Below are positions 15,860-39,438 of a DNA stretch of 44,784 nucleotides, piece by piece; positions within the stretch are counted from its first letter, which is position 1, and the number at the start of each line of letters is the position of its first letter. The stretch lies in the sequence record NC_047889.1, one strand, 5' to 3'. The notes under the pieces are model-generated. The model worked only from the letters and a program-made list of their open reading frames with translations, was not told the DNA's origin and ran no database searches. The translations under genes were made by a program, and so were the position numbers. Origin of the DNA: Escherichia phage mutPK1A2.

Positions 15860-16800
15860 TAGATGCTGATATGTTACCCTACATCGTAGGTTATACAATC
15901 AGTGACATGACTTATGTACGAGCCACAACTCGTGTTAAGTCAGGACAAGCCCCATCAATCAAAGATACACCTGAGTGTAAGCAAGCGTGTGACCGTGTGA
16001 ACTCCTTGCTTAACTCTTGGGTGTATGCAGCAGAGTGCGATGCAGCTAAGTTATTCTTGACGAAATCAGAAGCTAACTTCCGTGTTCGCCTAGCATTCAC
16101 CAAGCCTTACAAGGGTCAACGTAAGACCGAGAAGCCTCCCTTCTTCTATGAATTGCGAGAGCATCTCTTAGAGGTTCACGGTGCAATCTTGGCAGATGGA
16201 GAAGAAGCTGATGACCTCATGAGCATCGCACAATGGGCTAGCCACCGCCGCTTCCTGCAAGATACAGGTAACGAGTTCCCTATCGGTAGTCCAGAGCATA
16301 AAGCATTCTCTGATACTTGCATCGTTTCCTTAGATAAGGATTTGATGATTGTTCCCGGTTGGCATCTTCAGCCGGGTCAAGAGAAGAAATGGGTAGAACC
16401 TATGGGTTGGCTTGAGTTACGCCGCAAGGCTAACGGTCAAGTCAAAGACCTAAAAGGTGCTGGCCTTATGTTCCATTATGCACAGATGATTATCGGTGAT
16501 GATATTGATAACTATGCTGGCATACCTGGTCGTGGTGCTAAATATGCCTATGATCTTCTCAAAGGTTGTAAGACAGAGAAAGAATTGTACATGGCAGTGC
16601 TTGGAGCTTACAAAGCTAAGTTCGGTCATGGACAGGTTAAGATTAAGAATTACCGAGGTGGTTATCGGGTTGGCAAAGCCTTTGACCTTATGCTTGAATG
16701 TGGTCGCCTAGCACACATGGCTAGGTTCAAAGGTGATATATGGCGGGCCGATAAGAACCCAATCTTGTGGGGAGATGATGCGGAATGGTTAGCAAATTAA
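15772..16800 (+). CDS. 5'-3' exonuclease (T7 gp6-like, FEN family)
   Basis: Start ATG 15772 with RBS AAGGAG; acidic active-site-like motifs IALIDADMLPY, EADDLMSIA, VSLDKDLMIVPG in the arrangement of FEN-type exonucleases. Confidence 0.7.
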   Translation: MRPNFDFGATVSEDNNLLLWPTEGNRIALIDADMLPYIVGYTISDMTYVRATTRVKSGQAPSIKDTPECKQACDRVNSLLNSWVYAAECDAAKLFLTKSEANFRVRLAFTKPYKGQRKTEKPPFFYELREHLLEVHGAILADGEEADDLMSIAQWASHRRFLQDTGNEFPIGSPEHKAFSDTCIVSLDKDLMIVPGWHLQPGQEKKWVEPMGWLELRRKANGQVKDLKGAGLMFHYAQMIIGDDIDNYAGIPGRGAKYAYDLLKGCKTEKELYMAVLGAYKAKFGHGQVKIKNYRGGYRVGKAFDLMLECGRLAHMARFKGDIWRADKNPILWGDDAEWLAN

Positions 16801-17198
16801 AAGCATCGGAGGTGGCAGCTTATAAGAAGGAATTGCTAGATAAGCAAGGATGGAAATGCCCTCTGTGTGGCGGCAGCCTCAAAGCTGTCACACCTGTAAA
16901 CCGTGTACTTGACCATGACCATGAGACAGGATTCTGCCGTGCTGTTGTATGCCGAGGCTGCAATGGTGCGGAAGGGAAGATTAAGGGTGTTATCTCTGGT
17001 TATGGTAAGGCGGGTAATAACCGTTACTTCCAGCTTCAATGGTTAGAGAGATTGTATGAATACTGGAAGTTACATAGTACGCCTCAGACAGATAAGTTAT
17101 ATCACAAACATCAAACGGAGGCAGAGAAGCGCGAGGCTAAGAACCGTAAGGCACGCCTTGCTTATGCAAGAAAGAAGAAGGAGGTTAAAGTTGGGTAA
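16785..17198 (+). CDS. Endonuclease VII-like Holliday junction resolvase
   Basis: CPLCGG...LDHDHETGFCRAVVCRGCNGAEGKIKG matches the zinc/HNH-like motif pattern I recall for T4 endonuclease VII (CLICQ...HLDHDHE...CNLCNAAEG). Confidence 0.7.
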   Translation: MVSKLKASEVAAYKKELLDKQGWKCPLCGGSLKAVTPVNRVLDHDHETGFCRAVVCRGCNGAEGKIKGVISGYGKAGNNRYFQLQWLERLYEYWKLHSTPQTDKLYHKHQTEAEKREAKNRKARLAYARKKKEVKVG

Positions 17199-18198
17199 GC
17201 TTCGCAGCTTGTACAAAGACTCCGAGGTACTTGATGCAATCGAGCAAGCTACCGACGAGAAAGGTAATGTTAACTACAATGAGATGGCACGTGTATTATC
17301 GTGTCATCCTGTGGGTAAGAAGATTACCCGCCAGTTGGCTCGATACTGGCATGGTCAATTCAAGAAGACCAAGAAGAATGGTGATTACTATCAGACTCTT
17401 CTGCAAGAGGATCGGCGCATCAAAGAAGGGCGTAAGCTCAGGACTCCTGACCGTTACGAGGATTTGGCTGTTGTACCATTGCCTGACTCGCCTCATCGAA
17501 GTGTACTGGTAATCCCTGATACTCATGCACCTTATGAGCACCCAGATACCTTAGGGTTCCTTGCAGCAGTGGCAGCACGTTACCGTCCAGACACAGTGGT
17601 ACATCTCGGAGATGAAGCAGATAAACACGCCCTCTCCTTCCACGACTCTGATCCAAATCTGGATAGTGCTGGGGTGGAATTGGAGAAGGCTCGTGTCTTT
17701 ATGCATAAGCTGCATAAGATGTTTCCTGTGATGCGCCTGTGTCATTCTAATCACGGCTCTATGCACTTCCGTAAGGCAAGCGCCAAAGGTATTCCTGTAC
17801 AATATCTGCGTACCTATCGTGAAGTCTTCTTTCCGCATGGGGGTGGCGACCAGTGGGATTGGCAGCATACACACGTTCTTGAGTTGCCGAATGGTGAACA
17901 GGTTGCATTTAAGCATCAACCCGCAGGCTCAGTCTTAGCAGATGCAGCGCATGAGCGCATGAACTTAGTGTGCGGTCACTTGCATGGTAAGATGTCGGTG
18001 GAGTATGCACGTAATACACATGAACAGTATTGGGCTGTGCAGGGCGGCTGTTTGATTGATGAGTCATCTCGTGCATTTGCCTATGGTCGTGAGTCCAAAT
18101 ACAAGCCAGCATTAGGTTGTGTGGTTATTCTGGAGGGTGTGCCGCACATTGTCCCGATGCAGACCAATAGTGATAATCGCTGGATTGGTAAGATTTAG
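17191..18198 (+). CDS. Calcineurin-like metallophosphoesterase
   Basis: Motifs VIPDTHAP (DxH), HLGDEAD (GDxxD), CHSNHGS (GNH-like), GHLHG; start placed at TTG 17191 behind AAGGAGG (track ATG 17056 would overlap the resolvase by 143 nt); start is uncertain. Confidence 0.65.
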   Translation: MGKLRSLYKDSEVLDAIEQATDEKGNVNYNEMARVLSCHPVGKKITRQLARYWHGQFKKTKKNGDYYQTLLQEDRRIKEGRKLRTPDRYEDLAVVPLPDSPHRSVLVIPDTHAPYEHPDTLGFLAAVAARYRPDTVVHLGDEADKHALSFHDSDPNLDSAGVELEKARVFMHKLHKMFPVMRLCHSNHGSMHFRKASAKGIPVQYLRTYREVFFPHGGGDQWDWQHTHVLELPNGEQVAFKHQPAGSVLADAAHERMNLVCGHLHGKMSVEYARNTHEQYWAVQGGCLIDESSRAFAYGRESKYKPALGCVVILEGVPHIVPMQTNSDNRWIGKI

Positions 18199-18215
18199 TT
18201 GACACTATAGAACAA
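18193..18215 (+). promoter_or_regulatory. Phage promoter ATTTAGTTGACACTATAGAACAA
   Basis: Closest of all copies to the classical SP6 promoter ATTTAGGTGACACTATAGAAG. Confidence 0.65.
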
Positions 18216-18806: not shown

Positions 18807-18980
18807 ATGGAAGGTAAACTATATAGAGGGTACTTCGGTAACTTATATAGAGTAAGCCCTCTCGGTTTTGTATTGACCTCCAATGATGAAGGTGCAATGT
18901 GGTTCCTAAGTGCCTATGGTTCTGACTTAGCATACTTTAAAGAGGCAATAGTTAAAGGTGTGATGAAGGAGGTGAAATGA
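18807..18980 (+). CDS. Hypothetical protein (57 aa)
   Basis: Part of track ORF 18789..18980; ATG 18807 chosen on RBS GAGGA. Confidence 0.35.
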   Translation: MEGKLYRGYFGNLYRVSPLGFVLTSNDEGAMWFLSAYGSDLAYFKEAIVKGVMKEVK

Positions 18981-19924
18981 ATATCTTCCAATTCCTAGGT
19001 CTTCCAGAAGACCACCGCAATCACCCATTCATGCTGGTGAAACATCGCGGTGAAGTACCTGAGAAGAAATTAACTTTTCCATGTTATGCACAGGTAAAAC
19101 GAGATGGTATATTTAGTGCTGTGGTTGTTCGCAACGATGGTGTCGTTGGTGTCTTTGGACGCACTGGAAAGAAACTGGCTAACACGGAAACCTTGGAAGA
19201 ATCTTATTCAGCTTTCCCTACTGGCATTTATCTCGGTGAGTTGCAATCTATGGCTATTGATGTCTACCTTGAAGCACTTTCTGGAGTAGTTAACCCTAAC
19301 CGCACTGAGCCACTGGATTTCATAGGCCAGCAGATTAAAGACAACCTGTATATTGACTTCTTCGATATGTTAACTATTAAGGCATTCCATGATGGATTCA
19401 CTGATGTTTCTTATCTCAAACGTTACGATGCTTTACATCGTCGCATCGGCGCTCATCTTAGCGGGTACAACGCTATCCTTCCTATTACTCCTTGCCATAA
19501 TGAGCGAGAAGTTGAAGCGTTTGCGCAAGAGCAAATAGACGCAGGCCGAGAGGGTGCTGTGTTTAAACTGGACTGTGATTATGAAGCAGGCCACAAAGGT
19601 TATCGTCAGACTAAAGAAGTCCGTAAGGTAACTTATGACCTTACTTGTATTGGCTTTGAAGAAGGCAAAGGTAAGTACAAAGGTAAGGTAGCTAACCTCA
19701 TTTTCAAATGGAAAGGAGGCAAGACAATCAAAGCTATGTTAGGTAAAGGGTGGACTCATGCAGATGCAGAACAGATGTTCCACGATATTAAACATGGTGG
19801 ACGATTGAATGTCATTGGTAAAATCTTTGAAGTAAAAGGTCTTCAGGATTCAAGCAAGGGCAACATTCGTCTGCCCAAAGCGGGAGAATTAAGACATGAC
19901 AAAGATGAACCAGATTTCTTTTGA
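18977..19924 (+). CDS. ATP-dependent DNA ligase
   Basis: 315 aa; adenylation motif I KRDG in VKRDGIFSAV; strong RBS AAGGAGGTG; C-terminus DEPDFF. Confidence 0.85.
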   Translation: MNIFQFLGLPEDHRNHPFMLVKHRGEVPEKKLTFPCYAQVKRDGIFSAVVVRNDGVVGVFGRTGKKLANTETLEESYSAFPTGIYLGELQSMAIDVYLEALSGVVNPNRTEPLDFIGQQIKDNLYIDFFDMLTIKAFHDGFTDVSYLKRYDALHRRIGAHLSGYNAILPITPCHNEREVEAFAQEQIDAGREGAVFKLDCDYEAGHKGYRQTKEVRKVTYDLTCIGFEEGKGKYKGKVANLIFKWKGGKTIKAMLGKGWTHADAEQMFHDIKHGGRLNVIGKIFEVKGLQDSSKGNIRLPKAGELRHDKDEPDFF

Positions 19925-20111
19925 TAGCATGAAGGCAACTCGTGCAGTTGAGGTAGCAGAAGTTATCTTTGAAACTTTATCCTGTGGCATGGAAGTGCCA
20001 TATACCTTACTAGCTGATGCAGAAGAGCTTGGTCTTTCTGTAGAAGCTATCCAAGAGAAAGTTGAAGAACTCTATGGTACAGACGAAGAAGAAACCGACG
20101 ATTTCATTTGA
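19896..20111 (+). CDS. Hypothetical acidic protein (71 aa)
   Basis: ORF track; RBS GGGAG; overlaps the ligase end. Confidence 0.4.
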   Translation: MTKMNQISFDSMKATRAVEVAEVIFETLSCGMEVPYTLLADAEELGLSVEAIQEKVEELYGTDEEETDDFI

Positions 20112-20115
20112 GGGT

Positions 20116-20244
20116 ATGGAGATGCTTGAGATGATTCTCAAGCCTTCTTCTCCGAAGGTGACTAAGACTCACGAAGAATTAATCGTAGATGAAGTGAAGC
20201 GTTACATTATGGATTGTGTTAGAGCACAACTGGTGGTCCAATGA
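20116..20244 (+). CDS. Hypothetical small protein (start ambiguous: 20074, 20116 or 20131)
   Basis: Track ORF 20062..20244 starts at TTG; several in-frame ATGs with weak to moderate SD. Confidence 0.3.
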   Translation: MEMLEMILKPSSPKVTKTHEELIVDEVKRYIMDCVRAQLVVQ

Positions 20245-20702
20245 TACGTCCAGCTTCATTCCTAGATATTCCTGAGATTATAAACCTTGGGAATAAATAT
20301 GTGGAAGAGGAAGTCAAGGTTGTAGCCCACCACTCAGCCTCATGGAATGCAGAACAAAGCGCACATAACCTTTGTGCATCTCTTAGTAGAGAAGATTTAT
20401 TCCTATGGGTTGCTGTAGATGAAGGGCAGATTGTAGGTTTTCTGTGGGCTGGCTATCACGAGTTAGCCCCTTGGACACCTGTAAGAGTTGCATCTGACAT
20501 TCTCTTTTATATTGTACCAGAGAAGCGAGGGACACTGCTCGGTATGCGCCTCATCAAAGCCTTGAAGCAATGGGCTAACGATAGTGGGTGTTCCGAGGTT
20601 CGCCTGTCTATCGCTTCTGGTATTAATGAAGAACGTGTCGGACGTATGTATAAGCGACTTGGCTTTGAACAGTTTGGCACTGTGTATAACCTGAAGTTCT
20701 AA
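20241..20702 (+). CDS. GNAT-family N-acetyltransferase
   Basis: 153 aa; acetyl-CoA binding motif region VPEKRGTLLGMRLIKALKQWA (R/Q-x-x-G-x-G/A pattern) and overall GNAT size and layout. Confidence 0.65.
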   Translation: MIRPASFLDIPEIINLGNKYVEEEVKVVAHHSASWNAEQSAHNLCASLSREDLFLWVAVDEGQIVGFLWAGYHELAPWTPVRVASDILFYIVPEKRGTLLGMRLIKALKQWANDSGCSEVRLSIASGINEERVGRMYKRLGFEQFGTVYNLKF

Positions 20703-20711
20703 GGAGATCAC

Positions 20712-20921
20712 ATGGGTATTGTAAAGAAAGCATTTAAGGCTGTCGGTCTTGCTCAAGATGCACCGCGTATTGAAGCCAAGGTTCCTGCTCAGCAGCTTGA
20801 GCGTAAGCCTGAGACTGAAGCTGAAGATATACAGATTGGTGCAGGTGGTGATGATGCGACTGCATCTGCAAAAGGTAAGCGCGGGCTTGTTCGTCCGGTA
20901 GCTTCTAGCTTGAAGGTGTAA
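20712..20921 (+). CDS. Small charged protein (69 aa), possibly gp6.7-like virion protein
   Basis: Strong RBS TAAGGAG; directly upstream of portal as gp6.7/7.3 are in T7; basic C-terminus with KGKRGL. Confidence 0.45.
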   Translation: MGIVKKAFKAVGLAQDAPRIEAKVPAQQLERKPETEAEDIQIGAGGDDATASAKGKRGLVRPVASSLKV

Positions 20922-20922
20922 T

Positions 20923-22473
20923 ATGAAACAGAGCACAGATTTGGAGTATGGAGGTAAGCGGTCTAAGATACCTAAGCTATGGGAGAAGTTCTCCACTAAA
21001 CGTAGCTCTTTCCTTGATAGGGCGAAGCATTACTCCAAATTAACCTTGCCCTATCTGATGAATGACAAAGGTGATAACGAGACTTCGCAGAACGGATGGC
21101 AAGGTGTAGGTGCTCAGGCAACTAACCACCTAGCCAACAAGCTAGCGCAAGTGCTATTCCCTGCACAGCGCTCCTTCTTCCGTGTAGACCTAACTGCACA
21201 AGGTGAGAAGATTCTTAATCAGCGTGGCCTGAAGAAGACAAAGCTAGCTACTATCTTTGCTCAAGTGGAAACACGGGCAATGAAAGAGTTAGAGCAACGT
21301 CAATTCCGGCCTGCTGTAGTAGAAGCATTCAAGCATCTTATTGTTGCTGGTAGCTGTATGCTATACAAGCCAAGCAAAGGTGCAATCAGTGCAATCCCAA
21401 TGCATCACTATGTAGTTAATCGTGACACTAATGGCGACCTGTTAGACATTATCTTACTGCAAGAAAAATCCTTGCGTACATTTGACCCTGCTACACGTGC
21501 TGTAGTAGAGGTTGGCTTGAAAGGTAAGAAATGCAAGGAAGATGACAACATTAAGCTGTACACACATGCTAAGTATCTTGGTGAGGGTTTTTGGGAACTC
21601 AAGCAATCTGCTGATGACATCCCTGTTGGTAAGGTAAGTAAAATCAAATCAGAAAAGCTACCATTTATCCCGCTAACTTGGAAGCGAAGCTATGGTGAGG
21701 ATTGGGGTCGTCCTTTAGCAGAGGATTACTCCGGTGATTTATTCGTTATCCAATTCCTGTCTGAAGCAGTTGCCCGTGGTGCTGCACTGATGGCAGATAT
21801 TAAGTACTTGATTCGTCCAGGAGCTCAGACTGATGTTGACCACTTTGTTAACTCTGGCACTGGTGAGGTTGTCACTGGTGTAGAAGAAGACATCCATATT
21901 GTACAGTTAGGTAAGTATGCAGACCTCACACCTATTAGTGCGGTTCTAGAGGTGTACACTCGCCGTATCGGTGTCGTATTCATGATGGAGACGATGACAC
22001 GCCGTGATGCCGAACGTGTTACTGCTGTAGAAATCCAGCGAGATGCGTTAGAGATTGAGCAGAACATGGGCGGTGTATATTCCCTCTTTGCTACTACTAT
22101 GCAATCGCCAGTAGCGATGTGGGGTCTGCTGGAGGCAGGTGATTCATTCACTAGTGACCTAGTTGACCCTGTGATTATCACAGGCATTGAAGCATTAGGG
22201 CGCATGGCTGAACTGGATAAGCTGGCAAACTTCGCTCAGTACATGTCACTGCCTTTGCAATGGCCTGAGCCTGTCCTAGCTGCTGTGAAGTGGCCTGATT
22301 ACATGGATTGGGTACGTGGTCAAATCTCTGCTGAACTGCCATTCCTTAAATTGACTGAAGAGATGGAGCAAGAACAGGAAGCGCAGATGCAAGCACAGCA
22401 AGCACAGATGCTTGAAGAGGGTGTGGCTAAGGCCATTCCGGGTGTAATTCAACAAGAACTTAAGGAGGCGTAA
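20923..22473 (+). CDS. Portal (head-to-tail connector) protein
   Basis: 516 aa; position before scaffold and capsid; segment WQGVGAQATNHLANKLAQVLFP resembles T7 gp8 WQAVGARGLNNLASKLMLALFP. Confidence 0.85.
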   Translation: MKQSTDLEYGGKRSKIPKLWEKFSTKRSSFLDRAKHYSKLTLPYLMNDKGDNETSQNGWQGVGAQATNHLANKLAQVLFPAQRSFFRVDLTAQGEKILNQRGLKKTKLATIFAQVETRAMKELEQRQFRPAVVEAFKHLIVAGSCMLYKPSKGAISAIPMHHYVVNRDTNGDLLDIILLQEKSLRTFDPATRAVVEVGLKGKKCKEDDNIKLYTHAKYLGEGFWELKQSADDIPVGKVSKIKSEKLPFIPLTWKRSYGEDWGRPLAEDYSGDLFVIQFLSEAVARGAALMADIKYLIRPGAQTDVDHFVNSGTGEVVTGVEEDIHIVQLGKYADLTPISAVLEVYTRRIGVVFMMETMTRRDAERVTAVEIQRDALEIEQNMGGVYSLFATTMQSPVAMWGLLEAGDSFTSDLVDPVIITGIEALGRMAELDKLANFAQYMSLPLQWPEPVLAAVKWPDYMDWVRGQISAELPFLKLTEEMEQEQEAQMQAQQAQMLEEGVAKAIPGVIQQELKEA

Positions 22474-23393: not shown

Positions 23394-23409
23394 TCAGTAT
23401 TTACTGGAC

Positions 23410-23432
23410 ACTATAGAAGGGAGAAATGTCTC
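23410..23432 (+). promoter_or_regulatory. Phage promoter ATTTACTGGACACTATAGAAGGG (capsid promoter)
   Basis: Exact consensus, directly upstream of the major capsid gene. Confidence 0.8.
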
Positions 23433-24675: not shown

Positions 24676-24683
24676 TACCTATG

Positions 24684-24716
24684 CCCTATCTACCTTGCGT
24701 AGGTAGGGTTCTTTTT
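24684..24716 (+). terminator. Intrinsic terminator after the major capsid gene
   Basis: Imperfect 10-bp stem (CCCTATCTAC / GTAGGTAGGG) with loop CTTG followed by TTCTTTTT. Confidence 0.6.
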
Positions 24717-24729
24717 GTTAGGAGGATTC

Positions 24730-25467
24730 ATGCCTGTAATTAGACAAACCAGTAAAGTAGGACATATGATGGAAGATGTGGCCTTCCAGATTATTGATAG
24801 TAAGCTGGAAGCGGTAAACTTGTGTATGCGAGCTATTGGTCGTGAGGGTGTGGATTCTCTCGACTCAGGTGACTTGGACGCAGAAGATGCAAGCAAGATG
24901 ATCGACATCGTATCCCAGCGATTCCAGTACAACAAAGGAGGTGGCTGGTGGTTCAATCGTGAACCAAACTGGCAGATTGCACCTGATACCAATGGTGAAG
25001 TCAATCTACCTAACAACTGCCTAGCAGTATTGCAGTGTTATGCTTTGGGTGAGAAGAAAGTACCCATGACTATGCGAGCAGGTAAGCTCTACTCTACATG
25101 GAGTCATACCTTTGATATGCGTAAGCATGTGAATGCTAATGGTATGATTCGTCTTACCTTACTTACCTTACTTACATATGAGCATCTACCTACTAGTGTA
25201 ATGCAGGCTATTGCCTATCAAGCTGCTGTAGAGTTTATTGTGTCTAAGGATGCAGATCAGACTAAGCTAGCCACTGCACAGCAGATTGCCACTCAACTTC
25301 TTATGGATGTGCAATCCGAACAAATGTCACAAAAGCGACTGAATATGCTTGTGCATAATCCTACGCAGCGTCAGTTCGGTATTATGGCGGGTGGTTCTCA
25401 GAATGTACCTGCTTACTCTCATTCACCATATGATAGTTGGGCACTTCGTCCGTGGGAGGATCGTTAA
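24730..25467 (+). CDS. Tail tubular protein A (gp11-like)
   Basis: RBS AGGAGG before ATG 24730; region AIGREGVDSLDSGDLDAEDASKMIDIV...GGGWWFNREPNWQIAPD resembles T7 gp11. Confidence 0.8.
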   Translation: MPVIRQTSKVGHMMEDVAFQIIDSKLEAVNLCMRAIGREGVDSLDSGDLDAEDASKMIDIVSQRFQYNKGGGWWFNREPNWQIAPDTNGEVNLPNNCLAVLQCYALGEKKVPMTMRAGKLYSTWSHTFDMRKHVNANGMIRLTLLTLLTYEHLPTSVMQAIAYQAAVEFIVSKDADQTKLATAQQIATQLLMDVQSEQMSQKRLNMLVHNPTQRQFGIMAGGSQNVPAYSHSPYDSWALRPWEDR

Positions 25468-27869
25468 TGGAAGTACAAGGTTCGTTAGGGAGGCAAATCC
25501 AAGGGATTAGCCAGCAACCTCCAGCAGTACGTCTTGATGGTCAATGCACTACTATGGTGAACATGGTCCCTGATGTGGTGAATGGGACTCAATCCCGCAT
25601 GGGTACAACTCACATTGCTAAGCTCTTGGATGAAGGTACAGATAATATGGCAACGCACCATTATCGCAGGGGTGAGGGGGATGAAGAGTATTTCTTCACC
25701 TTAAAGAAGGGGCAAGTGCCAGAGATATTTGATAAGCATGGACGCAAGTGCAATGTCATCTCTCAAGATGCACCTATGACCTACCTTTCTGAAGTTGTTA
25801 ACCCTAGGGAAGATGTGCAATTCATGACTATAGCTGATGTTACTTTTATGCTTAACCGTAGGAAAGTGGTTAAAGTTAGTAATAGGAAGTCACCTAAAGT
25901 TGGAGATAAAGCCATTGTGTTTTGTGCATATGGTCAATACGGTACATCTTATTCTATCATAATTAATGGAACTACAGCTGCTAGTTTTAAAACACCAGAT
26001 GGGGGAAGTGCAGAACATGTTGAACAAATACGAACGGAACGTATCACTTCTGAATTGTACTCCAAGTTGCAGCAATGGAGTGGTGTGAATGACTATGAAA
26101 TACAAAGAGATGGTACGAGCATATTTATAGAGAGACGCGATGGTAAAAGTTTCACAGTAACAACTACCGATGGTGCAAAAGGTAAGGACTTAGTGGCTAT
26201 CAAGAATAAAGTTAGCTCTACTGACCTACTCCCTTCTCGTGCGCCTGCTGGTTATAAAGTGCAAGTGTGGCCTACTGGCAGCAAACCTGAGTCTCGTTAC
26301 TGGCTGCAAGCTGAGCCGAAAGAGGGAAACCTTGTGTCTTGGAAAGAAACAATAGCTGCTGATGTATTACTTGGGTTTGATAAAGGCACAATGCCTTACA
26401 TCATTGAACGTACAGGTATCATTGACGGCATAGCTCAATTCAAGATAAGACAAGGTGATTGGGAAGATCGTAAAGTAGGGGACGACTTGACTAACCCTAT
26501 GCCCTCTTTTATTGATGAGGAAGTGCCCCAGACAATAGGTGGGATGTTCATGGTACAGAACCGTCTATGCTTTACAGCAGGCGAAGCGGTTATTGCTTCT
26601 CGTACATCATACTTCTTCGATTTCTTTCGTTATACGGTTATCTCTGCACTGGCAACTGACCCATTTGATATTTTCTCAGATGCGAGTGAAGTTTATCAAT
26701 TGAAACACGCAGTAACCTTAGATGGCGCTACCGTGTTATTCTCTGATAAGTCACAATTCATTTTGCCAGGAGATAAACCGCTAGAGAAATCCAACGCCTT
26801 ACTCAAGCCTGTCACAACATTTGAAGTTAACAATAAAGTTAAACCAGTAGCCACTGGTGAGTCTGTAATGTTTGCTACTAACGATGGTGCTTACTCTGGT
26901 GTCCGAGAGTTCTATACAGACTCTTATAGTGACACTAAGAAGGCACAAGCAATCACAAGTCATGTGAATAAGCTTATCGAAGGTAACATTATCAACATGG
27001 CAGCAAGTACCAATGTCAACCGATTGCTTGTCACTACCGATAAATATCGTAACATAATTTACTGCTATGATTGGTTATGGCAAGGTACAGACCGTGTACA
27101 ATCAGCATGGCATGTATGGGAGTGGCCTATGGGTACAAAGGTGCGAGGTATGTTTTATTCTGGTGAATTACTTTATCTACTCCTTGAGCGAGGCGATGGC
27201 GTCTATCTGGAGAAGATGGACATGGGTGATGCACTAACCTGTGGTTTGAATGACCGCATCAGAATGGATAGGCAAGCAGAGTTGATCTTCAAGCATTTTA
27301 AAGCAGAAGATGAATGGATATCTGAACCACTTCCTTGGACTCCTACTAACCCAGAACTTTTGGATTGCATCTTAATAGAAGGGTGGGATTCATATATTGG
27401 AGGTTCTTTCCTGTTCAAATATAACCCTAGTGATAACACCTTGTCTACAACCTTTGACATGCATGATGATAACCACGTAAAAGCGAAGGTTATTGTTGGT
27501 CAGATTTACCCTCAAGAGTTTGAACCAACACCTGTAGTTATCAGAGATAGGCAAGACCGTGTATCCTATATTGATGTACCTGTTGTGGGATTAGTTCACC
27601 TTAATCTTGATATGTATCCTGATTTCTCCGTGGAGGTTAAGAATGTGAAGAGTGGTAAAGTACGCAGGGTGCTAGCGTCAAACCGTATAGGTGGTGCTCT
27701 CAACAATACAGTAGGCTATGTTGAACCAAGAGAAGGTGTCTTCAGATTCCCACTGAGAGCTAAGAGTACGGATGCTGTTTATCGTATTATTGTAGAATCA
27801 CCTCACACATTCCAGCTCCGCGATATTGAGTGGGAAGGGAGCTACAATCCAACCAAAAGGAGGGTCTAA
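25467..27869 (+). CDS. Tail tubular protein B (gp12-like)
   Basis: 800 aa; N-terminal GISQQPPAVRLDGQ resembles T7 gp12 GISQQPDILRYPDQ; start overlaps previous stop (TAATG). Confidence 0.85.
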   Translation: MEVQGSLGRQIQGISQQPPAVRLDGQCTTMVNMVPDVVNGTQSRMGTTHIAKLLDEGTDNMATHHYRRGEGDEEYFFTLKKGQVPEIFDKHGRKCNVISQDAPMTYLSEVVNPREDVQFMTIADVTFMLNRRKVVKVSNRKSPKVGDKAIVFCAYGQYGTSYSIIINGTTAASFKTPDGGSAEHVEQIRTERITSELYSKLQQWSGVNDYEIQRDGTSIFIERRDGKSFTVTTTDGAKGKDLVAIKNKVSSTDLLPSRAPAGYKVQVWPTGSKPESRYWLQAEPKEGNLVSWKETIAADVLLGFDKGTMPYIIERTGIIDGIAQFKIRQGDWEDRKVGDDLTNPMPSFIDEEVPQTIGGMFMVQNRLCFTAGEAVIASRTSYFFDFFRYTVISALATDPFDIFSDASEVYQLKHAVTLDGATVLFSDKSQFILPGDKPLEKSNALLKPVTTFEVNNKVKPVATGESVMFATNDGAYSGVREFYTDSYSDTKKAQAITSHVNKLIEGNIINMAASTNVNRLLVTTDKYRNIIYCYDWLWQGTDRVQSAWHVWEWPMGTKVRGMFYSGELLYLLLERGDGVYLEKMDMGDALTCGLNDRIRMDRQAELIFKHFKAEDEWISEPLPWTPTNPELLDCILIEGWDSYIGGSFLFKYNPSDNTLSTTFDMHDDNHVKAKVIVGQIYPQEFEPTPVVIRDRQDRVSYIDVPVVGLVHLNLDMYPDFSVEVKNVKSGKVRRVLASNRIGGALNNTVGYVEPREGVFRFPLRAKSTDAVYRIIVESPHTFQLRDIEWEGSYNPTKRRV

Positions 27870-28591
27870 TGGCTATAGGTTCAGCCGTTATGTCTGGTAT
27901 GTCTTCTATTGGTAGTATGTTTGCAGGCAGCGGTGCAGCAGCCGCTGCTGGAGGTGCTGCCGCAGGTGGCGGAGGTTTGCTAGGTTCACTAGGTGGATTC
28001 CTAAGTGGCTCCACTGCTGGTTTCTCTAATGCTGGCCTTCTTGGTGCTGGCCTTCAAGGGTTAGGCTTGATTGGTGATCTCTTTGGTGGAAGTGATGAAG
28101 CCAAGGCGATGAAGAAAGCACAAGAAGAGCAATGGCGGCAGCAGCTTATTGCTACACAAGAGGCGTACAAGACAGTGGCAGACGCAGAACGTTCTGCTGC
28201 TAAACAATATCATGCAGATGCAATCAGTAATCAGGCTTCACTGCTACAGCAGCGAGCACAGGTTGCATTACTTGCTGGGGCTACTGGTACTGGTGGTAAT
28301 TCTGTGTCCTCTATGCTTAATGACTTAGCAGCAGATGGCGGCAGGAACCAGAGTACTATCATTGATAACTATGAGAATCAGAAGATTAATTTCACCAACC
28401 AGCTTAAGTCTATCCAACGTGGTGGTCAGATGCAGATGCGTGAGTTTAAGAAGCCTTCTGCTATGAATACCTTGGTTAAAGGTATTCCAAGTCTGGCATC
28501 TGCCTATGTAACTGGTAGTAAGTCTGGCAAGGCATTGGGTAAAGCCTTAACTGATTCTCGCACATATTCATCTGGAACAAGAGGTATTTAA
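27869..28591 (+). CDS. Internal virion protein (Gly/Ala-rich N-terminus)
   Basis: 240 aa; low-complexity G/A/S N-terminal region; position after tail tubular B as gp13/gp14 in T7. Confidence 0.65.
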   Translation: MAIGSAVMSGMSSIGSMFAGSGAAAAAGGAAAGGGGLLGSLGGFLSGSTAGFSNAGLLGAGLQGLGLIGDLFGGSDEAKAMKKAQEEQWRQQLIATQEAYKTVADAERSAAKQYHADAISNQASLLQQRAQVALLAGATGTGGNSVSSMLNDLAADGGRNQSTIIDNYENQKINFTNQLKSIQRGGQMQMREFKKPSAMNTLVKGIPSLASAYVTGSKSGKALGKALTDSRTYSSGTRGI

Positions 28592-31539
28592 TGGCAATTG
28601 AGCGACAAGCAGTACAAGGTCTGCCACAAGTGCAGGCCACTTCTCCTAATGTCATGACCTTTGCACCTCAACAAGTGGGAGGTGTGGAGGCTGGCGTGGC
28701 TTCTACCTCCGGTAGTAGGTTTATCGAAGACCTTATTCGTGCAGCAAGCAGCGTGGCTGATGTTACCACTGGTATCCTTAATCAGAAGATTGAGGAAGAT
28801 AAGGTTGTTCAAATGGAACGGGCATATAACGGATTAATGCCTTCTGAGGATGCAACTCGTGGTGGCGCTCGTGCTAACATGCTTGTCAAAGCTCAACTGC
28901 TAGCTAATGATGAAGCAGCACGAATGAAAGACATGGCTACTCGTTTCCAAGGGACGGATGACGAGTGGACACAACTTATGGTTGACTCTCGTAATGAGAT
29001 GCAGAATAAGCTGTTCCAGCAATACCCTGAGTTGCAAGGTGACAAAGATACTATGCGTATGGTCACTAATGTCTTCCAAGAACAGCAGCCTCAGATTTGG
29101 GCTACACGGACCCAGCATAAACTTGACCGTGAACAAGCAGACCGTGAGGATACCTTTGACGGGCGAGTGGCTTCTACTTGGGATTCTAATATTGACCCTG
29201 AAGCATCTGGCTATGCTTTACAGGAACGAATCCGCGAAGGTCTGACTCAAGGATTACTACCTGAACAGATGCACAAGAAGTTAGTCCAGCGGGCAATTTC
29301 ACTTGCACAAGGTGGGGATGTTAGCATGGCTGAAGCACTGAAGTATGTGAAGGACGATAAGGGCGTTTCTGTTTATGCTAAGAATCCACAGCTTATCACA
29401 GCCATCACTAGTGGTAATGCAGTTTGGGCTAGGAATAATGTAGCTGATGTAACTCGTATGTCTTTCGAAGTTAAAGAATCATACCTTGCAGGCGATTTAA
29501 CTGATGAAGAATTATTGGAACGAGCACAGCACATTAATAATCTGACAGGTAACTCTGTCTTCTCTAATTCAGAGCTAGAGGCACTGATGCGCAAACGGGC
29601 TAAGCAGAATGCAGAGCTAGGTGCAATGCAGGATATGCGACGTGAGCTTTACTCCGACCGCCTGACTGGCTTCCAAGGTAAGACTGATAAAGAGAAGAAG
29701 GCTTACATTGATGTTATCAAACAGGATAGCCAACTTTATGCAGACCAGCAAATCAAACAACGTGGCTTGGACCCTTACAGTCAAGAGGCTGAAGCTATTC
29801 GTGGTGCAGTGGAAGTGCAGCGCCTGCAATTCATGAACTCCAAAGGCTTAGTGGATGATACCTTTGAGTCTCGTATCAAAGCCATGGAATCTATGCTATC
29901 GCCTGAGCACTTTGCCAAGGGCGAACCACAGGAGTTGATGACTATTCGCCAGTTGTGGGAACAGTTGCCAGAAGAGAGCCGAGGTGTCTTTGGTGACACG
30001 GTGAATGGCTACATGGATAACTACAACACTGCACTACAAATGGGAGAGACACCTTTGCAGGCTGCAAGGTTTGCGCGTGAAGCACAGCAGAAATTCTCTC
30101 GTACTGAGAAGGAAAACAAGAAGTTCAACTCAGCTATTGGAGATGCACTGGATGAGGTATCTGGTGCTGGCTGGTTTGATGGTAAAACCGAAGTGTCAGA
30201 CTTAGGTAAAGCTATTGCGGAAGAAGAGTTACGAGCTAAGGCCAATATGTTGTGGTCTAGCGGTATGCGTAACATGGATTCTATCAAGAAGGCTTTAATT
30301 ACTTGGGGCAATAAACGCTACACTCAATCAGAGGATGCAAAGACTTCAGGTGGCTATTTCATTAAAGGTGATTACACTTCTGCATCTGATATGCTTATGT
30401 CAGTTGGGAAAGGTGTAAACCCTACCGATGTCCCTCTGGCGCTTGGTAGGTATGTAGAAACACAGATGCCAGAATTGAAGAAGGAGCTTCAAGAGTGGGA
30501 AACTAAGGATGATGTGTACATTGATTACAATGAACAGAAAGGAACTTTTGTGATTCGTGCTGGTGCAGCAGGTCGCCCTCTTTCTGGAGTAATCCCTGTA
30601 ACTTCTTTGGATACCACTTCACTACTGGATTCTGCCTATCAGAAGAAAGTAGAAGAACGAGATAAAGGCGAGTATGTTCATCCCTATCGTACAGGTATCG
30701 GTGCACAAGAACCAATGCCAGCTAAGCCAACTGCCAAAGATATTGGTAAATTTGGACTAGCTAACTTCCTCATGTCTTCTGCTTTTGCTTCTGGTGAGAA
30801 TCTGCCTTCTAACTTCGAGATTAACTATCGAGGTAATATGCAACAATTCTATGACAAGCTAGCTATGGATGAGAATAAAGATAAAGTTGGCTTTAATAAG
30901 GCAACTGGAACCTTTACTCCATATAAAGACGCTCACGGTGAGTCTATCGGTTACGGTCATTTCTTAACGGAAGAAGAGAAGCGAAACGGGTATATTAAGA
31001 TTGGCGATGAACTAGTTCCCTATCGAGGGTCTATGTCTCAGCTTACAGAGAGTAAGGCTCGCGCTCTTATGGAGCAAGATGCTAAGAAGCATGTGCCTCC
31101 TACTCGTGACTGGAAGATTCCGTTTGACCAGATGCATCCTGCACAGCAACGTGGCTTGATGGATTTAACCTACAATTTAGGTAAAGGTGGAATCCAGAAC
31201 TCACCGCGTGCTCTTGCTGCATTCAAAGCTGGTAAACTTACGGAAGGCTTTATCGAAATGCTGGGTACTGCATCTAGTGAAGGTAAACGTGTTTCTGGCT
31301 TACTGAAGCGACGTGCTGAGGCTTACAATATGGCATCTGCTGGTGGTGTGCCTAAGATTACCGAAGTGGAGACTCGTGAAGATGGCTCCATGTGGGTTAG
31401 GTTTGGTGGCCCTATGCCAGCAGGTTCTGTCTCGGCATGGACTCATAAACGTATTGGCGCGGATGGTTGGTATCAGGTTTATGATGCTGCACCTACCAAG
31501 TTAACTAAAGATTCTAAGGTAGGTAAAGTTAAATTGTAG
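28591..31539 (+). CDS. Internal virion protein with C-terminal GH24 lysozyme-like domain
   Basis: 982 aa; C-terminal region (about nt 30900..31330) has T4-lysozyme-like motifs DAHGESIGYGH and LMDLTYNLGKGG. Confidence 0.75.
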   Translation: MAIERQAVQGLPQVQATSPNVMTFAPQQVGGVEAGVASTSGSRFIEDLIRAASSVADVTTGILNQKIEEDKVVQMERAYNGLMPSEDATRGGARANMLVKAQLLANDEAARMKDMATRFQGTDDEWTQLMVDSRNEMQNKLFQQYPELQGDKDTMRMVTNVFQEQQPQIWATRTQHKLDREQADREDTFDGRVASTWDSNIDPEASGYALQERIREGLTQGLLPEQMHKKLVQRAISLAQGGDVSMAEALKYVKDDKGVSVYAKNPQLITAITSGNAVWARNNVADVTRMSFEVKESYLAGDLTDEELLERAQHINNLTGNSVFSNSELEALMRKRAKQNAELGAMQDMRRELYSDRLTGFQGKTDKEKKAYIDVIKQDSQLYADQQIKQRGLDPYSQEAEAIRGAVEVQRLQFMNSKGLVDDTFESRIKAMESMLSPEHFAKGEPQELMTIRQLWEQLPEESRGVFGDTVNGYMDNYNTALQMGETPLQAARFAREAQQKFSRTEKENKKFNSAIGDALDEVSGAGWFDGKTEVSDLGKAIAEEELRAKANMLWSSGMRNMDSIKKALITWGNKRYTQSEDAKTSGGYFIKGDYTSASDMLMSVGKGVNPTDVPLALGRYVETQMPELKKELQEWETKDDVYIDYNEQKGTFVIRAGAAGRPLSGVIPVTSLDTTSLLDSAYQKKVEERDKGEYVHPYRTGIGAQEPMPAKPTAKDIGKFGLANFLMSSAFASGENLPSNFEINYRGNMQQFYDKLAMDENKDKVGFNKATGTFTPYKDAHGESIGYGHFLTEEEKRNGYIKIGDELVPYRGSMSQLTESKARALMEQDAKKHVPPTRDWKIPFDQMHPAQQRGLMDLTYNLGKGGIQNSPRALAAFKAGKLTEGFIEMLGTASSEGKRVSGLLKRRAEAYNMASAGGVPKITEVETREDGSMWVRFGGPMPAGSVSAWTHKRIGADGWYQVYDAAPTKLTKDSKVGKVKL

Positions 31540-31556
31540 TACCTAACTCAAGGCTT

Positions 31557-31572
31557 GTCTCACATGTGAGAC
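31557..31572. repeat. 16-bp palindrome GTCTCACATGTGAGAC (copy 6, extended stem)
   Basis: Exact core with flanks CTT...AGG, followed by TCTTTAT. Confidence 0.85.
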
Positions 31573-31603
31573 AGGTCTTTATGATAGGCACTATGGAGGA
31601 ACT

Positions 31604-34600
31604 ATGGAACAAGATATTAAGACTAATTGGGCTGGATATGTCCAGTCTACTCCTGAGCCGTTTTCTATTGAGGCGGCTCCGGTATCGGCTCCTACGATAC
31701 GCCAGCGTAATGAGTTACAAGAGCAAGTTCTTGAAGCCAAAGCTGATGCGGACATCTTAGGTGCTGTAGGTGCTGCCTTCCAGAATGAATGGTTGGCATT
31801 TGGAGGTAAGCGATGGTATGACCGTGCCACTGCTGATTTCACACCTCAACCTGACTTTGAAATCCAACCGGAGCAACGTGAAGCTCTTCGCTTCAAATAC
31901 GGCACGGATATGATGCAGACAATCACTGAGGGTGTTCGTTCTGAGGATGAATTGAACTTCCGTATTCAGAATGCTGATGAAGACCTTGAGCGTAATAAAC
32001 GTATTGCGCAGGCTGGCTGGGTTGGCTCTGTGGCAACGATTGGTGCTGCTGTGCTTGACCCTGTTGGCTGGGTTGCCTCTATTCCAACCGGTGGTGCAGC
32101 TAAAGTTGGACTTGTAGGCCGTGCTGTGCGTGGTGCTATCGCCGCTGGCGTGAGTAATGCCGCTATTGAATCCGTATTGGTCCAAGGTGACATGACTCGT
32201 GATTTAGATGACATTATGGTGGCACTAGGCTCAGGTATGGCGATGGGTGGCGTTATCGGCGCTGTAGCGCGTGGTAGGGCCACTAAGCTCAGTGAGCAAG
32301 GGGATGACAGAGCGGCAAGCATTGTGCGCAGTGCAGACGCAGGGGACCGCTATGTGCGTGCTGTTGCTGATGACAGTATCGGTGCGATGCGTGTTAAGGG
32401 TGAAGAGGTACTCACTGAGGGTGCATTTGATATCTCTAGCAAAGGTGAAGATTTGCTGAAAATCCTACAGCGGGAAGGTAATGCAATTGATATGACACCT
32501 CGCCGCTGGGCCGGAACTATGTCTGCCCTTGGGACTGTCGTGCACTCCTCTCAGGATGCTAGTGTTCGTGGCCTCGGTGCTCGCCTGTTTGAGTCTCCGC
32601 AAGGTTTAGGTATGCAAAAGGCATCTGCCAGTCTTATGCAGAATACCAACTTGAATCGACTGAAGTCTGCTGATATGAACCGTTTCAATGACGGGTTTGA
32701 CTTATGGCTCAAAGAGAATAATATCAATCCAGTTGCAGGCCATACTAACTCTCACTATGTGCAACAATATAATGAGAAGGTATGGGAAGCTGTACGCATC
32801 GGTATGGATGAGTCTACGCCTAAGTCTATCCGTATGGCAGCAGAGGGGCAGCAAGCTATGTATCGTGAAGCATTAGCATTACGTCAACGCTCTGGTGAAG
32901 CTGGGTTTGAAAAGGTCAAAGCAGATGATAAGTACATGCCTGATATTTTTGACAGTATGAAGGCTCGTCGTCAATTCGGTATGCACGATAAAGAGGACAT
33001 CATTGAGCTATTCTCTCGTGCATACCAGAATGGTTCTCGTAAGGTTCCAAAGGAAGTGGCTGATGAGATTGCACGTGCACAAGTAAACCGTGTTGTGGAT
33101 GCCACTCTGACAGGACGTATGAGTTTCGAAAAGGCTATGTCTGGTCAGACTAAAGCAGAGTATGAAGCAATAATGCGCAAGGCAGGCTTCAGTGATGAAG
33201 AAATTGAAAAGATGGTAGAAGCTCTGGATAATAAAGAAACCAGAGATAATATCTCTAACCGAGCTAAGATGAGTTTAGGCTTAGATGTTACTCAAGAGTA
33301 CAATGGCATTCGTATGCGTGACTTTATGAATACTAACGTGGAAGAGTTAACAGATAACTACATGAAGGAAGCGGCAGGTGGTGCTGCCTTGGCTCGTCAA
33401 GGTTTCTCTACCTATCAGGCTGCACTTAATGCAATTGACCTTGTAGAGCGAAATGCACGAAATGCAGCTAAAGATACAAAAGCGCACGCACAATTTGAAG
33501 CGGAGTCTGCTAAGATTCGTCAATCAGAGCCTGATTACAAGAAGGCACAAGAGAAGATTGAAGAGTTAAAGAAGCGACTTAAATTGAAAGAGAAAGATGA
33601 AGCAGCTGGTCTGGCTATTGATGAAGAAATCCGTCAGATGCGAGAAGGGCTTCGCTTGATTATGGGTAAATCTATCGATGCAGACCCACAGGCTTTGTCT
33701 ACTAAAATGCTGCGTCGTGGTCGTGACATTACAGGTGTACTTCGCTTAGGTCAGATGGGCTTCGCACAGCTAGGTGAACTTGCTAACTTCATGGGTGAGT
33801 TTGGTATTGCTGCAACCACTATAGCTTTAGGTAAGCAATTCCGCTTTACATCTAAGGCTTTGCGGAGCGGTGATGGCTTCTTCCGAGATAAGAACTTGGC
33901 AGAAGTAGAGAGGATGGTAGGTTACATTGGTGAGGATAACTGGCTAACAACCAAGGGTGCACGTCCAGATGAGTTTGGTGATGTAACCACAGTAAGAGGG
34001 ATGATGGCTCACTTTGACCAATCCATGAACTCAATACGTCGTGCTCAGACCAACCTATCACTCTTCCGAATGGCACAAGGCTCTCTGGAGCGAATGACCA
34101 ATAGGCAAATAGCTTTGTCTTTCATTGACCACCTTGAAGGCAAGAGGATTATTCCTCAGAAGAAACTGGAGGAACTTGGTCTTACTCAGGAGTTCATGAC
34201 TAACCTACAGAAGCACTATGATGCTAACTCTAAAGGTTCTGGCTTGCTTGGCTTTGATACAATGCCTTATGCCATGGGTGAAACTTTAGCTAATGCTATT
34301 CGTCGTAAGTCAGGTATAATTATCCAACGTAACTTCATTGGTGATGAAGGTATCTGGATGAACAAAGCACTAGGTAAGACATTTGCACAGCTTAAGTCAT
34401 TCTCTCTTGTATCTGGTGAGAAGCAATTTGGTCGAGGGATTCGCCACGATAAAATTGGTCTTGCTAAGAAGACAGCTTACGGGTTTGCTTTGGGTTCAAT
34501 AGTGTATGCGGCAAAAGCCTATGTGAACTCTATTGGGCGAGAAGACCAAGATGAATATTTGGAAGAGAAGTTATCGCCTAAAGGGTTGGCCTTTGGTGCA

Positions 34601-34912
34601 ATGGGTATGATGAGTACAACTGCTGTATTTAGTCTAGGTGGAGATTTCTTAGGTGGCCTAGGTGTTCTACCTTCCGAACTCATTCAATCACGCTATGAAG
34701 CAGGTTTCCAAAGTAAGGGTCTGATTGACCAAATACCTCTGGTTGGCGTTGGTGCAGATGCAGTAAATCTGGCTAATTCAATCAAGAGGTATGCAGAAGG
34801 TGACACAGAAGGTGTAGATGTCGCTAAGCGAGCACTTCGTCTTGTGCCACTAACTAATGTAATAGGTGTCCAAAACGCATTGCGTTATGGCTTAGATGAA
34901 CTGGAGGATTGA
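31604..34912 (+). CDS. Large internal virion (core/ejection) protein
   Basis: 1102 aa; RBS GGAGG; position and size consistent with T7 gp15/gp16-class core proteins. Confidence 0.75.
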   Translation: MEQDIKTNWAGYVQSTPEPFSIEAAPVSAPTIRQRNELQEQVLEAKADADILGAVGAAFQNEWLAFGGKRWYDRATADFTPQPDFEIQPEQREALRFKYGTDMMQTITEGVRSEDELNFRIQNADEDLERNKRIAQAGWVGSVATIGAAVLDPVGWVASIPTGGAAKVGLVGRAVRGAIAAGVSNAAIESVLVQGDMTRDLDDIMVALGSGMAMGGVIGAVARGRATKLSEQGDDRAASIVRSADAGDRYVRAVADDSIGAMRVKGEEVLTEGAFDISSKGEDLLKILQREGNAIDMTPRRWAGTMSALGTVVHSSQDASVRGLGARLFESPQGLGMQKASASLMQNTNLNRLKSADMNRFNDGFDLWLKENNINPVAGHTNSHYVQQYNEKVWEAVRIGMDESTPKSIRMAAEGQQAMYREALALRQRSGEAGFEKVKADDKYMPDIFDSMKARRQFGMHDKEDIIELFSRAYQNGSRKVPKEVADEIARAQVNRVVDATLTGRMSFEKAMSGQTKAEYEAIMRKAGFSDEEIEKMVEALDNKETRDNISNRAKMSLGLDVTQEYNGIRMRDFMNTNVEELTDNYMKEAAGGAALARQGFSTYQAALNAIDLVERNARNAAKDTKAHAQFEAESAKIRQSEPDYKKAQEKIEELKKRLKLKEKDEAAGLAIDEEIRQMREGLRLIMGKSIDADPQALSTKMLRRGRDITGVLRLGQMGFAQLGELANFMGEFGIAATTIALGKQFRFTSKALRSGDGFFRDKNLAEVERMVGYIGEDNWLTTKGARPDEFGDVTTVRGMMAHFDQSMNSIRRAQTNLSLFRMAQGSLERMTNRQIALSFIDHLEGKRIIPQKKLEELGLTQEFMTNLQKHYDANSKGSGLLGFDTMPYAMGETLANAIRRKSGIIIQRNFIGDEGIWMNKALGKTFAQLKSFSLVSGEKQFGRGIRHDKIGLAKKTAYGFALGSIVYAAKAYVNSIGREDQDEYLEEKLSPKGLAFGAMGMMSTTAVFSLGGDFLGGLGVLPSELIQSRYEAGFQSKGLIDQIPLVGVGADAVNLANSIKRYAEGDTEGVDVAKRALRLVPLTNVIGVQNALRYGLDELED

Positions 34913-38845: not shown

Positions 38846-39127
38846 ATGATGGCTAATGAGTACAGCAATCAGCCTTTAACAGGCCGATATGACAGAAAAC
38901 AAGTACAACCAGTTAGTGAACACTTAATGGTCCCAAGTGTTAACACTAATATTGATCTATACAACCCAGCAAAACAGGCTAGTGTTATTAATGATACCAC
39001 AAAGTCCGGTAAGCAACTCGGAGCTATGCTTGTAACAGAAATGGGTGTCCTGATGCTAGCCCGTGGAGGTGAACCCACAAGCAAGTGGGACCAGACAAAG
39101 ACATCAGAGATTATTGTTCCAGCCTAA
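38846..39127 (+). CDS. Paralog family member 1 (93 aa), unknown function
   Basis: RBS AGGAG; shares the motif SGKQ-x-GAM-V...L..AR...P.S.WD with the next ORF. Confidence 0.6.
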   Translation: MMANEYSNQPLTGRYDRKQVQPVSEHLMVPSVNTNIDLYNPAKQASVINDTTKSGKQLGAMLVTEMGVLMLARGGEPTSKWDQTKTSEIIVPA

Positions 39128-39143: not shown

Positions 39144-39431
39144 ATGCCTAAGTATGGAGATGCAAACACTGTAACAGGTCAGTCCTTCCGTGTTAAAGAT
39201 GTTCAAACTATTGCAACTGCACTGCCATTGCCTGTGGTAGCAGAGGCAGACCTTAAATCTAAAGCACACCCAATTAACATCCACCATCTTTCGGGTAAAC
39301 AAAAAGGAGCCATGGTTGCGGTACAGAAAGCAGAGGGATCGCTATATATCGCTGTAGCACGAGATGCACTACCTGAATCTCCGTGGGATGCCACTACAAT
39401 GGAAGGTACCGCTGTTACGCCAGCGGGGTAA
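39144..39431 (+). CDS. Paralog family member 2 (95 aa), unknown function
   Basis: ATG 39144 with RBS AGGAG; contains HLSGKQKGAMVAVQKAEGSLYIAVARDALPESPWD. Confidence 0.6.
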   Translation: MPKYGDANTVTGQSFRVKDVQTIATALPLPVVAEADLKSKAHPINIHHLSGKQKGAMVAVQKAEGSLYIAVARDALPESPWDATTMEGTAVTPAG

Positions 39432-39438
39432 TATTATC

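Follow-up and report, generated by a model that had tools for sequence, protein, structure and literature searches.

A GNAT-fold acetyltransferase gene before the portal gene of K1E/SP6-like phages: a tentative counterpart of the T7 gp13 assembly factor

The genome of Escherichia phage mutPK1A2 (NC_047889.1) carries a gene at positions 20241..20702 (+) for a GNAT-fold protein of 153 amino acids (aa) plus stop. The whole 44,784-nucleotide stretch of DNA that was analysed is referred to here as the window. The product of this gene is most likely a virion-assembly factor of the T7 gp13 type and not an accessory anti-defence protein. A more specific proposal is offered tentatively: the protein would be the SP6-group counterpart of podovirus IVP-A (internal virion protein A, typified by T7 gp13) and would act by acetylation. 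The case for an assembly role draws on the behaviour of the gene as a core gene, its place in a predicted structural operon, and the two alternative positions that its family occupies in the structural block of podophages.

The source genome is that of a K1E/SP6-like Vectrevirus and shares 99% identity with phage ACG-C91 across the 3 kb tested. The window GNAT agrees with K1E gp27 at every residue (100% identity). Its identity to SP6 gp28 is 75%, and to the K1-5 protein 95% outside an insertion in the latter. The window GNAT matches phrog_1249 over residues 1-151 (E 2.5e-54), and this full-length HMM match makes it a member of PHROG 1249. Homologues were found by tblastn in 245 phage records, nearly all of them Autographiviridae of ~45 kb, whose hosts include Escherichia, Klebsiella, Salmonella, Proteus, Erwinia, Vibrio, Pseudomonas and Rhizobium. 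The gene is already known: K1E gp27 and SP6 gp28 have been in GenBank for about twenty years, annotated as acetyltransferases, and many other records carry the same label. The literature searched held no experiments on K1E gp27 or SP6 gp28. The K1-5 orthologue (L044:401-928) has an in-frame 22-aa insertion that starts with a duplicated 'HHSASWNAEQSA' and falls in the alpha1-alpha2 loop, the low-confidence loop in the model of the window GNAT. In GNATs, the alpha1-alpha2 loop usually belongs to the acceptor site.

The initial annotation placed the gene between ligase and portal, and the neighbouring genes bear this out. The last recognisable DNA-metabolism gene upstream encodes an ATP-dependent DNA ligase (18977..19924, +). 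Between it and the GNAT gene lies a 60-aa ORF similar to K1E gp26 (20062..20244, +; phrog_6507). The stop codon of this ORF and the start codon of the GNAT share the sequence ATGA, an overlap that suggests that the two are translationally coupled. Inside this 60-aa ORF lies a terminator-like hairpin (20124..20143, +) with an 8-bp stem, 4 GC pairs and a weak T-run; it may have arisen by chance, with 13 such sites in the scan against 7.4 expected. Downstream of the GNAT gene is a 69-aa ORF of the T7 gp7.3 family (20712..20921, +; phrog_1320, E 3.9e-11), and next to it the gene for the portal, or head-tail connector (20923..22473, +). In T7, gp7.3 serves as a tail-channel scaffold for the junction of nozzle and adaptor, and infection leads to its ejection (PMC11784390).

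The nearest SP6-type promoter match upstream of the GNAT gene has one mismatch and lies at 18193..18210 (+). The next is found upstream of the major capsid gene (23399..23416, +), and the promoter scan gave no match between 18193 and 23399. A strong terminator-like hairpin with an 11-pair stem follows the capsid gene (24683..24709, +), and its stem is the longest among the terminator-like sites scanned downstream of the GNAT gene. Since no promoter match intervenes before 23399 and the longest stem comes at 24683, the GNAT gene is predicted to be transcribed together with the genes for the ligase, the gp7.3-like protein, the portal and the scaffold from the promoter at 18193. The SP6 promoter consensus has eleven matches (up to 3 mismatches) in the window as compared to 0.08 expected by chance. 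On the + strand they start at 2337, 6341, 8643, 9373, 12992, 15042, 18193, 23399 and 41035; weaker ones lie at 32202 (+) and 1862 (-). The variant ATTTACTGGACACTATAG recurs among them, and together the matches amount to the phage's own promoter map. An endonuclease VII-like ORF (16785..17198, +) and the metallophosphoesterase ORF after it (17056..18198, +; phrog_221) overlap by ~140 nt as listed, and the true start of the metallophosphoesterase is probably an internal codon.

The protein has the topology of the GNAT superfamily, a mixed alpha/beta fold in the order beta1-alpha1-alpha2-beta2-beta3-beta4-alpha3-beta5-alpha4-beta6-beta7. Three Pfam models exceed their curated thresholds (PF00583, 41.1 vs 20.7 bits; PF13508, 39 vs 27; PF13673, 26.4 vs 23.6), and the Pfam GNAT models align through motifs A and B. 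The original description of a 153-aa protein of GNAT type thus survives the profile and fold searches that had been suggested as its check; the same searches gave no nearest subfamily. Motif A, in the beta4-alpha3 loop, reads R96-G97-T98-L99-L100-G101 (20526..20543, +). Across the family R96 is conserved in 98% of members, G97 in 88%, A/G101 in 89% and G141 in 98%, and an acidic residue occupies position 86 in 91%. The central Gly of the motif (Q/R-x-x-G-x-G/A) is replaced by Leu in the window GNAT and is variable across the family. Motif B (GRMYKRLGF) contains Tyr137 (codon 20649..20651, +), at the usual position of the GNAT general acid. In the broad family, this position is Tyr in 74% and Phe or Leu in ~21%.

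Residues conserved across a diverse set of homologues are R3, D9, E23, G66, A84, D/E86, Y90, P93, R96, G97, A/G101, W111, G127, Y137, G141 and G146. They take in the cofactor loop and the acid/base positions that are usual in GNATs, with the exception of the central Gly of motif A. The protein probably binds the cofactor, and it looks like an active enzyme. Because the central Gly is missing, acetyl-CoA binding is stated as a prediction only. As part of the tentative reading that equates it with gp13, this GNAT-fold protein would be an acetyl-CoA-dependent N-acetyltransferase.

No GNAT subfamily can be assigned to the protein. All NCBIfam curated cut-offs were missed widely, with best scores of 25-33 bits against cut-offs of 86-210, and the best matches by score were PRK03624, ArsN1, AAC(6') and RimI. 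The score for aminoglycoside 6'-N-acetyltransferase was 29.7 bits against a cut-off of 140, those for the phosphinothricin/arsinothricin enzymes (ArsN1/PAT) 30.4 against 170 and 26.9 against 210, and that for RimI-type N-alpha-acetyltransferase 25.6 against 86.4. The top PDB sequence matches are weak (E 5e-6 to 1e-3) and are headed by 4j3g (E 5e-6), followed by SSAT2 and PA4866. Neither of the two fold searches had a clear leader: protein acetyltransferases (Naa60, Hpa2, Ard1, Naa10/30/50) and small-molecule acetyltransferases (PAT/BAR, ArsN, polyamine, AAC(6')) were mixed at equal rank. This flat ranking gives no clue to the substrate. An exhaustive profile search yielded 5,797 cluster representatives at E<1e-3, 7 of them below 1e-30, and most are single-domain proteins of ~150 aa. 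Some of the longer metagenomic relatives (P0065, P0068, P0075 and P0088) consist of two phrog_1249 GNAT domains fused in tandem (318-385 aa), and P0082 and P0193 have extensions of ~150-170 aa that belong to no recognisable family. Fusion partners were dropped as a clue to function, the longer relatives being either tandem GNATs or proteins with unassignable extensions. Elsewhere in the window, the large terminase gene is followed by three tandem ORFs (38846..39127, 39144..39431 and 39364..40116, all +) that share an N-terminal domain, phrog_2725 (E 1e-30, 4e-43 and 4e-15), with the motif 'SGKQ.GAM'. The phrog_2725 label 'acetyl-CoA acetyltransferase', which PMC4837284 uses for K1E gp42, finds no support in Pfam and is probably spurious.

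The window GNAT gene is a core gene of SP6/K1E-like phages, unlike an accessory or counter-defence gene of patchy occurrence. In all 28 related IMG/VR loci, close relatives at 62-99% identity, the GNAT ORF is intact, 152-153 aa long and free of indels, and the gene order is fixed as ligase-gp25-gp26-GNAT-small ORF-portal-scaffold. There, the GNAT has changed about as fast as the ligase and the portal, and more slowly than the scaffold. The median dN/dS is 0.069 (Nei-Gojobori, 121 informative pairs), and the gene is therefore under strong purifying selection, with dN/dS of about 0.07. Among phage records with at least 60% identity, 135 carry the GNAT and 145 the portal. It is the combination of an intact ORF, a fixed order, slow divergence and presence in ~135 of ~145 records that identifies a core gene.

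The position of the gene before the portal recurs in other groups, with the layout ligase or RNA polymerase, small ORFs, GNAT, 60-90-aa ORF, portal and scaffold. This layout is found in Era103 (Molineuxvirinae), in VEN and Nerthus (Colwellvirinae), in ECBP5 and Roth32 (Gajwadongvirus), and in Rhizobium phage Paso. Other phrog_1249 members are located between tail tube B and IVP-B, the gp13 slot, in Lentibacter phage ICBM1 (Zobellviridae; E 2e-40), Acinetobacter phage TPWB-05 (E 1e-36) and Yersinia phage YeP5 (E 1.5e-44). With the TPWB-05 protein as query, plain tblastn retrieves K1E gp27, SP6-like phages, VEN and Nerthus, at 26-32% identity and ~98% coverage. The phrog_1249 family thus occupies either of two slots in the podovirus structural block.

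Phages with the GNAT gene before the portal appear to leave the other slot vacant. In the window, the tail tube B ORF (25437..27869, +) abuts an ORF for an IVP-B-like internal virion protein (27830..28591, +), and the T7 gp13/IVP-A slot at this junction (25437..28591) holds no gene. The internal virion proteins of the phage are encoded at 27830..34912. A six-frame scan of the window found one GNAT and no gp13-type ORF, and the gp13 HMM finds nothing in it. Tail tube B likewise abuts IVP-B in LUZ19, Era103 and VEN. The exclusivity of the two slots was checked in about eight lineages.

The gp13 slot has itself been associated with acetyltransferases. T7 IVP-A matches acetyltransferases by HHpred, and many podoviruses, including epsilon15 and P22, have an IVP-A-type gene in the gp13 slot (Hardies et al. 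2016, PMC4819975). The GNAT of SIO1/ICBM1 has been equated with gp13 (Bischoff et al. 2019, PMC6775973). According to Kemp et al. 2005, as cited in PMC4819975, T7 gp13 is needed for the morphogenesis of infectious particles and is absent from the mature virion. Gp13 also went undetected in a T7-like virion proteome (PMC4517105).

Structure prediction indicates that T7 gp13 has a GNAT fold. The AF2 model, built for a protein that shares 97% identity with T7 gp13, has a pLDDT of 92.5 and GNAT topology. This model (m470289d4764b; T7 gene 13, L036:9308-9724) matches GNAT structures only, 76 of them at E<1e-3, including RimI (3.5e-5), SpeG and Ard1, and the model of the window GNAT matches the same set. 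Conservation of the motif A Gly falls to 8% in the gp13 family, and 99% of its members have Phe at the Tyr position. With the Gly lost and Phe in place of Tyr, gp13 looks like a pseudo-enzyme, or pseudo-acetyltransferase. The initial annotation held that T7 has no such enzyme between ligase and portal. The family profile finds nothing significant in the T7 late region.

Sequence homology between the window GNAT and gp13 could not be established: hhalign aligns the N-terminal 18 columns only (P 7.6e-4, probability 25%), and such an N-terminal block is common in GNATs. The window GNAT has no Pfam match to PF11090 ('probable scaffold protein'). A separate observation concerns T7 gp7 (L036:1131-1532, 'host range'), which lies directly upstream of gp7.3 and hence in the same slot as the window GNAT. 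Its alignment to the GNAT family is collinear over 77 columns (beta2 to alpha4) and includes the block 'VINPEADSKG...C' against 'YIVPEKRGT...C'. The match is not significant (P 0.013 vs ~0.04 for reversed controls), and T7 gp7 could be a degenerate GNAT remnant.

Our proposal for the function of the window GNAT takes as its basis the fold, the family, the core-gene behaviour, the predicted co-transcription, the use of two slots, the empty gp13 slot in the window and the modelled GNAT fold of gp13. From these we infer a functional equivalence, a catalytic activity and a substrate. The gene would be expressed from the phage promoter at 18193, on one transcript with the genes for the ligase, the gp7.3-like tail-channel protein, the portal and the scaffold. 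The protein would fill the role of IVP-A, a non-structural protein needed for assembling infectious particles, namely their ejection-protein and tail-channel part, and the gene for this role in the SP6 group would stand in front of the portal instead of after tail tube B. It would help assembly without staying in the virion. Conservation at the cofactor and acid/base positions makes acetylation of a protein its probable mode of action; the substrate would be an ejection or tail-channel protein of the phage itself, or an assembly partner of such proteins. Since gp13 has lost the cofactor signature and the window family keeps it, the biochemical roles of the two may differ.

A role in host takeover, similar to that of Rac (gp28) of phage LUZ19, is an unlikely alternative, though a serious one. 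The GNAT would then acetylate host proteins in mid to late infection and shut down host functions. LUZ19 has the layout GNAT, small virion protein, portal, scaffold, so that Rac occupies the same slot as the window GNAT, and it is the only GNAT before the portal that has been studied experimentally. It acts on host RNA polymerase: Rac expressed alone leads to cleavage of the alpha-CTD and raised acetylation, and mutation of its acetyl-CoA pocket abolishes the effect (PMC7552054). This precedent for action on the host lends some weight to the earlier suggestion of host manipulation. Against an accessory enzyme of host manipulation or anti-defence stand the status of the window GNAT as a core gene, its predicted operon with portal and scaffold, the place that its family takes between tail tube B and IVP-B in other podophages, and the GNAT fold predicted for gp13. 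Neither BLAST nor HMM comparison bears out a direct homology to Rac. BLASTP finds no similarity between the two (E 4.7), phrog_3986, the Rac family, is absent from the PHROG matches of the window GNAT, and the window family HMM scores Rac at 15.6 bits as compared to 23 bits for the generic Pfam GNAT model. What remains is a broad-profile match by hhalign (92 columns in the correct register, probability 70%, E 4e-5), together with the fact that the only PHROG match of Rac beyond its own family is phrog_1249 (E 4.9e-4). On these scores, Rac is not demonstrably closer to the window family than to GNATs generally. Moreover, Ceyssens et al. report no alpha cleavage by the GNAT in the same slot of LKA1, which makes the effect genus-specific even inside the Krylovirinae (PMC7552054). 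The phrog_1249 family is also present in podophages devoid of a phage RNA polymerase, such as the Zobellviridae, to which the loss of host RNA polymerase activity would be harmful (PMC10504331), and strict core-gene behaviour inside structural operons is unusual for a host-takeover gene. A Rac-like host role and a gp13-like assembly role are not mutually exclusive.

The two remaining readings are less likely than the gp13-like and Rac-like ones. The fold could serve as a non-catalytic scaffold or chaperone with a vestigial acetyl-CoA site, as in T7 gp13, which suggests that a GNAT fold in such a role can lose its cofactor motifs; the variable motif A Gly and the Phe or Leu found at position 137 in part of the family are in line with this. 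We consider it improbable because R96, G97, A/G101, D/E86 and G141 are 88-98% conserved in a family that diverges to ~25-30% identity, which is hard to explain without cofactor binding, and because Pfam GNAT models match above their cut-offs through motifs A and B. Least probable is a small-molecule acetyltransferase or an anti-defence enzyme, which would detoxify an aminoglycoside-like, phosphinothricin-/methionine-sulfoximine-like or polyamine compound or, alternatively, target a host defence protein or signal by acetylation. The weak top sequence matches are small-molecule GNATs (4j3g, SSAT2, PA4866, ArsN1 and AAC(6')), and one record labels a homologue 'aminoglycoside acetyltransferase', but the subfamily cut-offs given above were all missed and the fold searches rank protein and small-molecule acetyltransferases equally. 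The earlier suggestion of a role on aminoglycosides or other small molecules consequently gains no positive evidence. The anti-defence role suggested alongside it fares no better in the PADLOC HMM search, whose sole match has an E of 0.036 in a library of defence, not anti-defence, proteins. Niche-specific resistance or counter-defence also fits poorly with a gene that is conserved across phages of Escherichia, Vibrio, Pseudomonas, Rhizobium and roseobacters and fixed in position within structural operons.

The interpretation of the window GNAT as a gp13-type assembly factor would have wider consequences. A GNAT-fold gene recurs in the structural block of very different podophages, and two such genes have been studied, T7 gp13 for morphogenesis and LUZ19 Rac for shut-off of the host polymerase. 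An explicit link of the SP6-group and Rac genes before the portal to the IVP-A slot is absent from the literature searched; it is offered here as a hypothesis drawn from about eight lineages, on the basis of fold-level similarity and synteny. In a bolder and doubtful version, podoviruses of the T7 supergroup and their relatives each have one GNAT-fold gene in the virion block, in the slot before the portal or the one after tail tube B. SP6/K1E gp27-28, LUZ19 Rac, T7 gp13 and P22 gp14 would all descend from one ancestral acetyltransferase needed for the ejection apparatus. The SP6-group enzyme would still be active, acetylating an ejection or tail-channel protein as a required step, and the host effect of Rac and the loss of catalysis in gp13 would be later derivations. 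If the SP6-group enzyme is an active gp13-type assembly factor, it suggests a biochemical activity for long-enigmatic phage morphogenesis proteins, and protein acetylation would become a step in virion assembly. Relatives of K1E, K1-5 and SP6 are used as therapeutic and engineering chassis, so the dispensability of the GNAT gene matters in practice.

Among known systems, K1E gp27, SP6 gp28 and the K1-5 acetyltransferase (PHROG 1249) are the same gene as the window GNAT and share its position and neighbours. Cellular GNATs (the phosphinothricin/methionine-sulfoximine acetyltransferases PA4866 and 4j3g, SSAT/SpeG, AAC(6'), RimI/Ard1/Naa and Hpa2) share 15-25% identity with the protein, which reaches none of the subfamily cut-offs. 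P22 gp14 (phrog_651 'head morphogenesis', DUF2824; L043:8911-9366) is a protein of 151 aa whose gene immediately precedes the ejection-protein genes 7, 20 and 16, and Hardies et al. call it a standard IVP-A homologue (PMC4819975). Inspection by eye picks out GNAT-like blocks in it (YLPEIRG..., ...MYCAMIGLKRVGT; MYLPEIRGFSKEIG; RHGQMYCAMIGLKRVGT), which are in register with those of the window family. Its single-sequence comparison with that family is not significant (P 0.27). Rac differs from the window GNAT in belonging to PHROG 3986 and in a divergent C-terminus that lacks motif B; it resembles the window GNAT in its GNAT fold, its slot before the portal, the empty gp13 slot of its phage and a similarity at the profile level. 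T7 gp13 shows no significant sequence similarity to the window GNAT, occupies the other slot, and has lost the cofactor motifs that the window family mostly keeps. The window GNAT lies before the portal and hence outside the gp13 slot, in which its homologues in ICBM1, TPWB-05 and YeP5 do sit. In other respects the two correspond: each is predicted to be a GNAT-fold protein of similar size, encoded by a non-structural gene within the late structural region and present once per genome.
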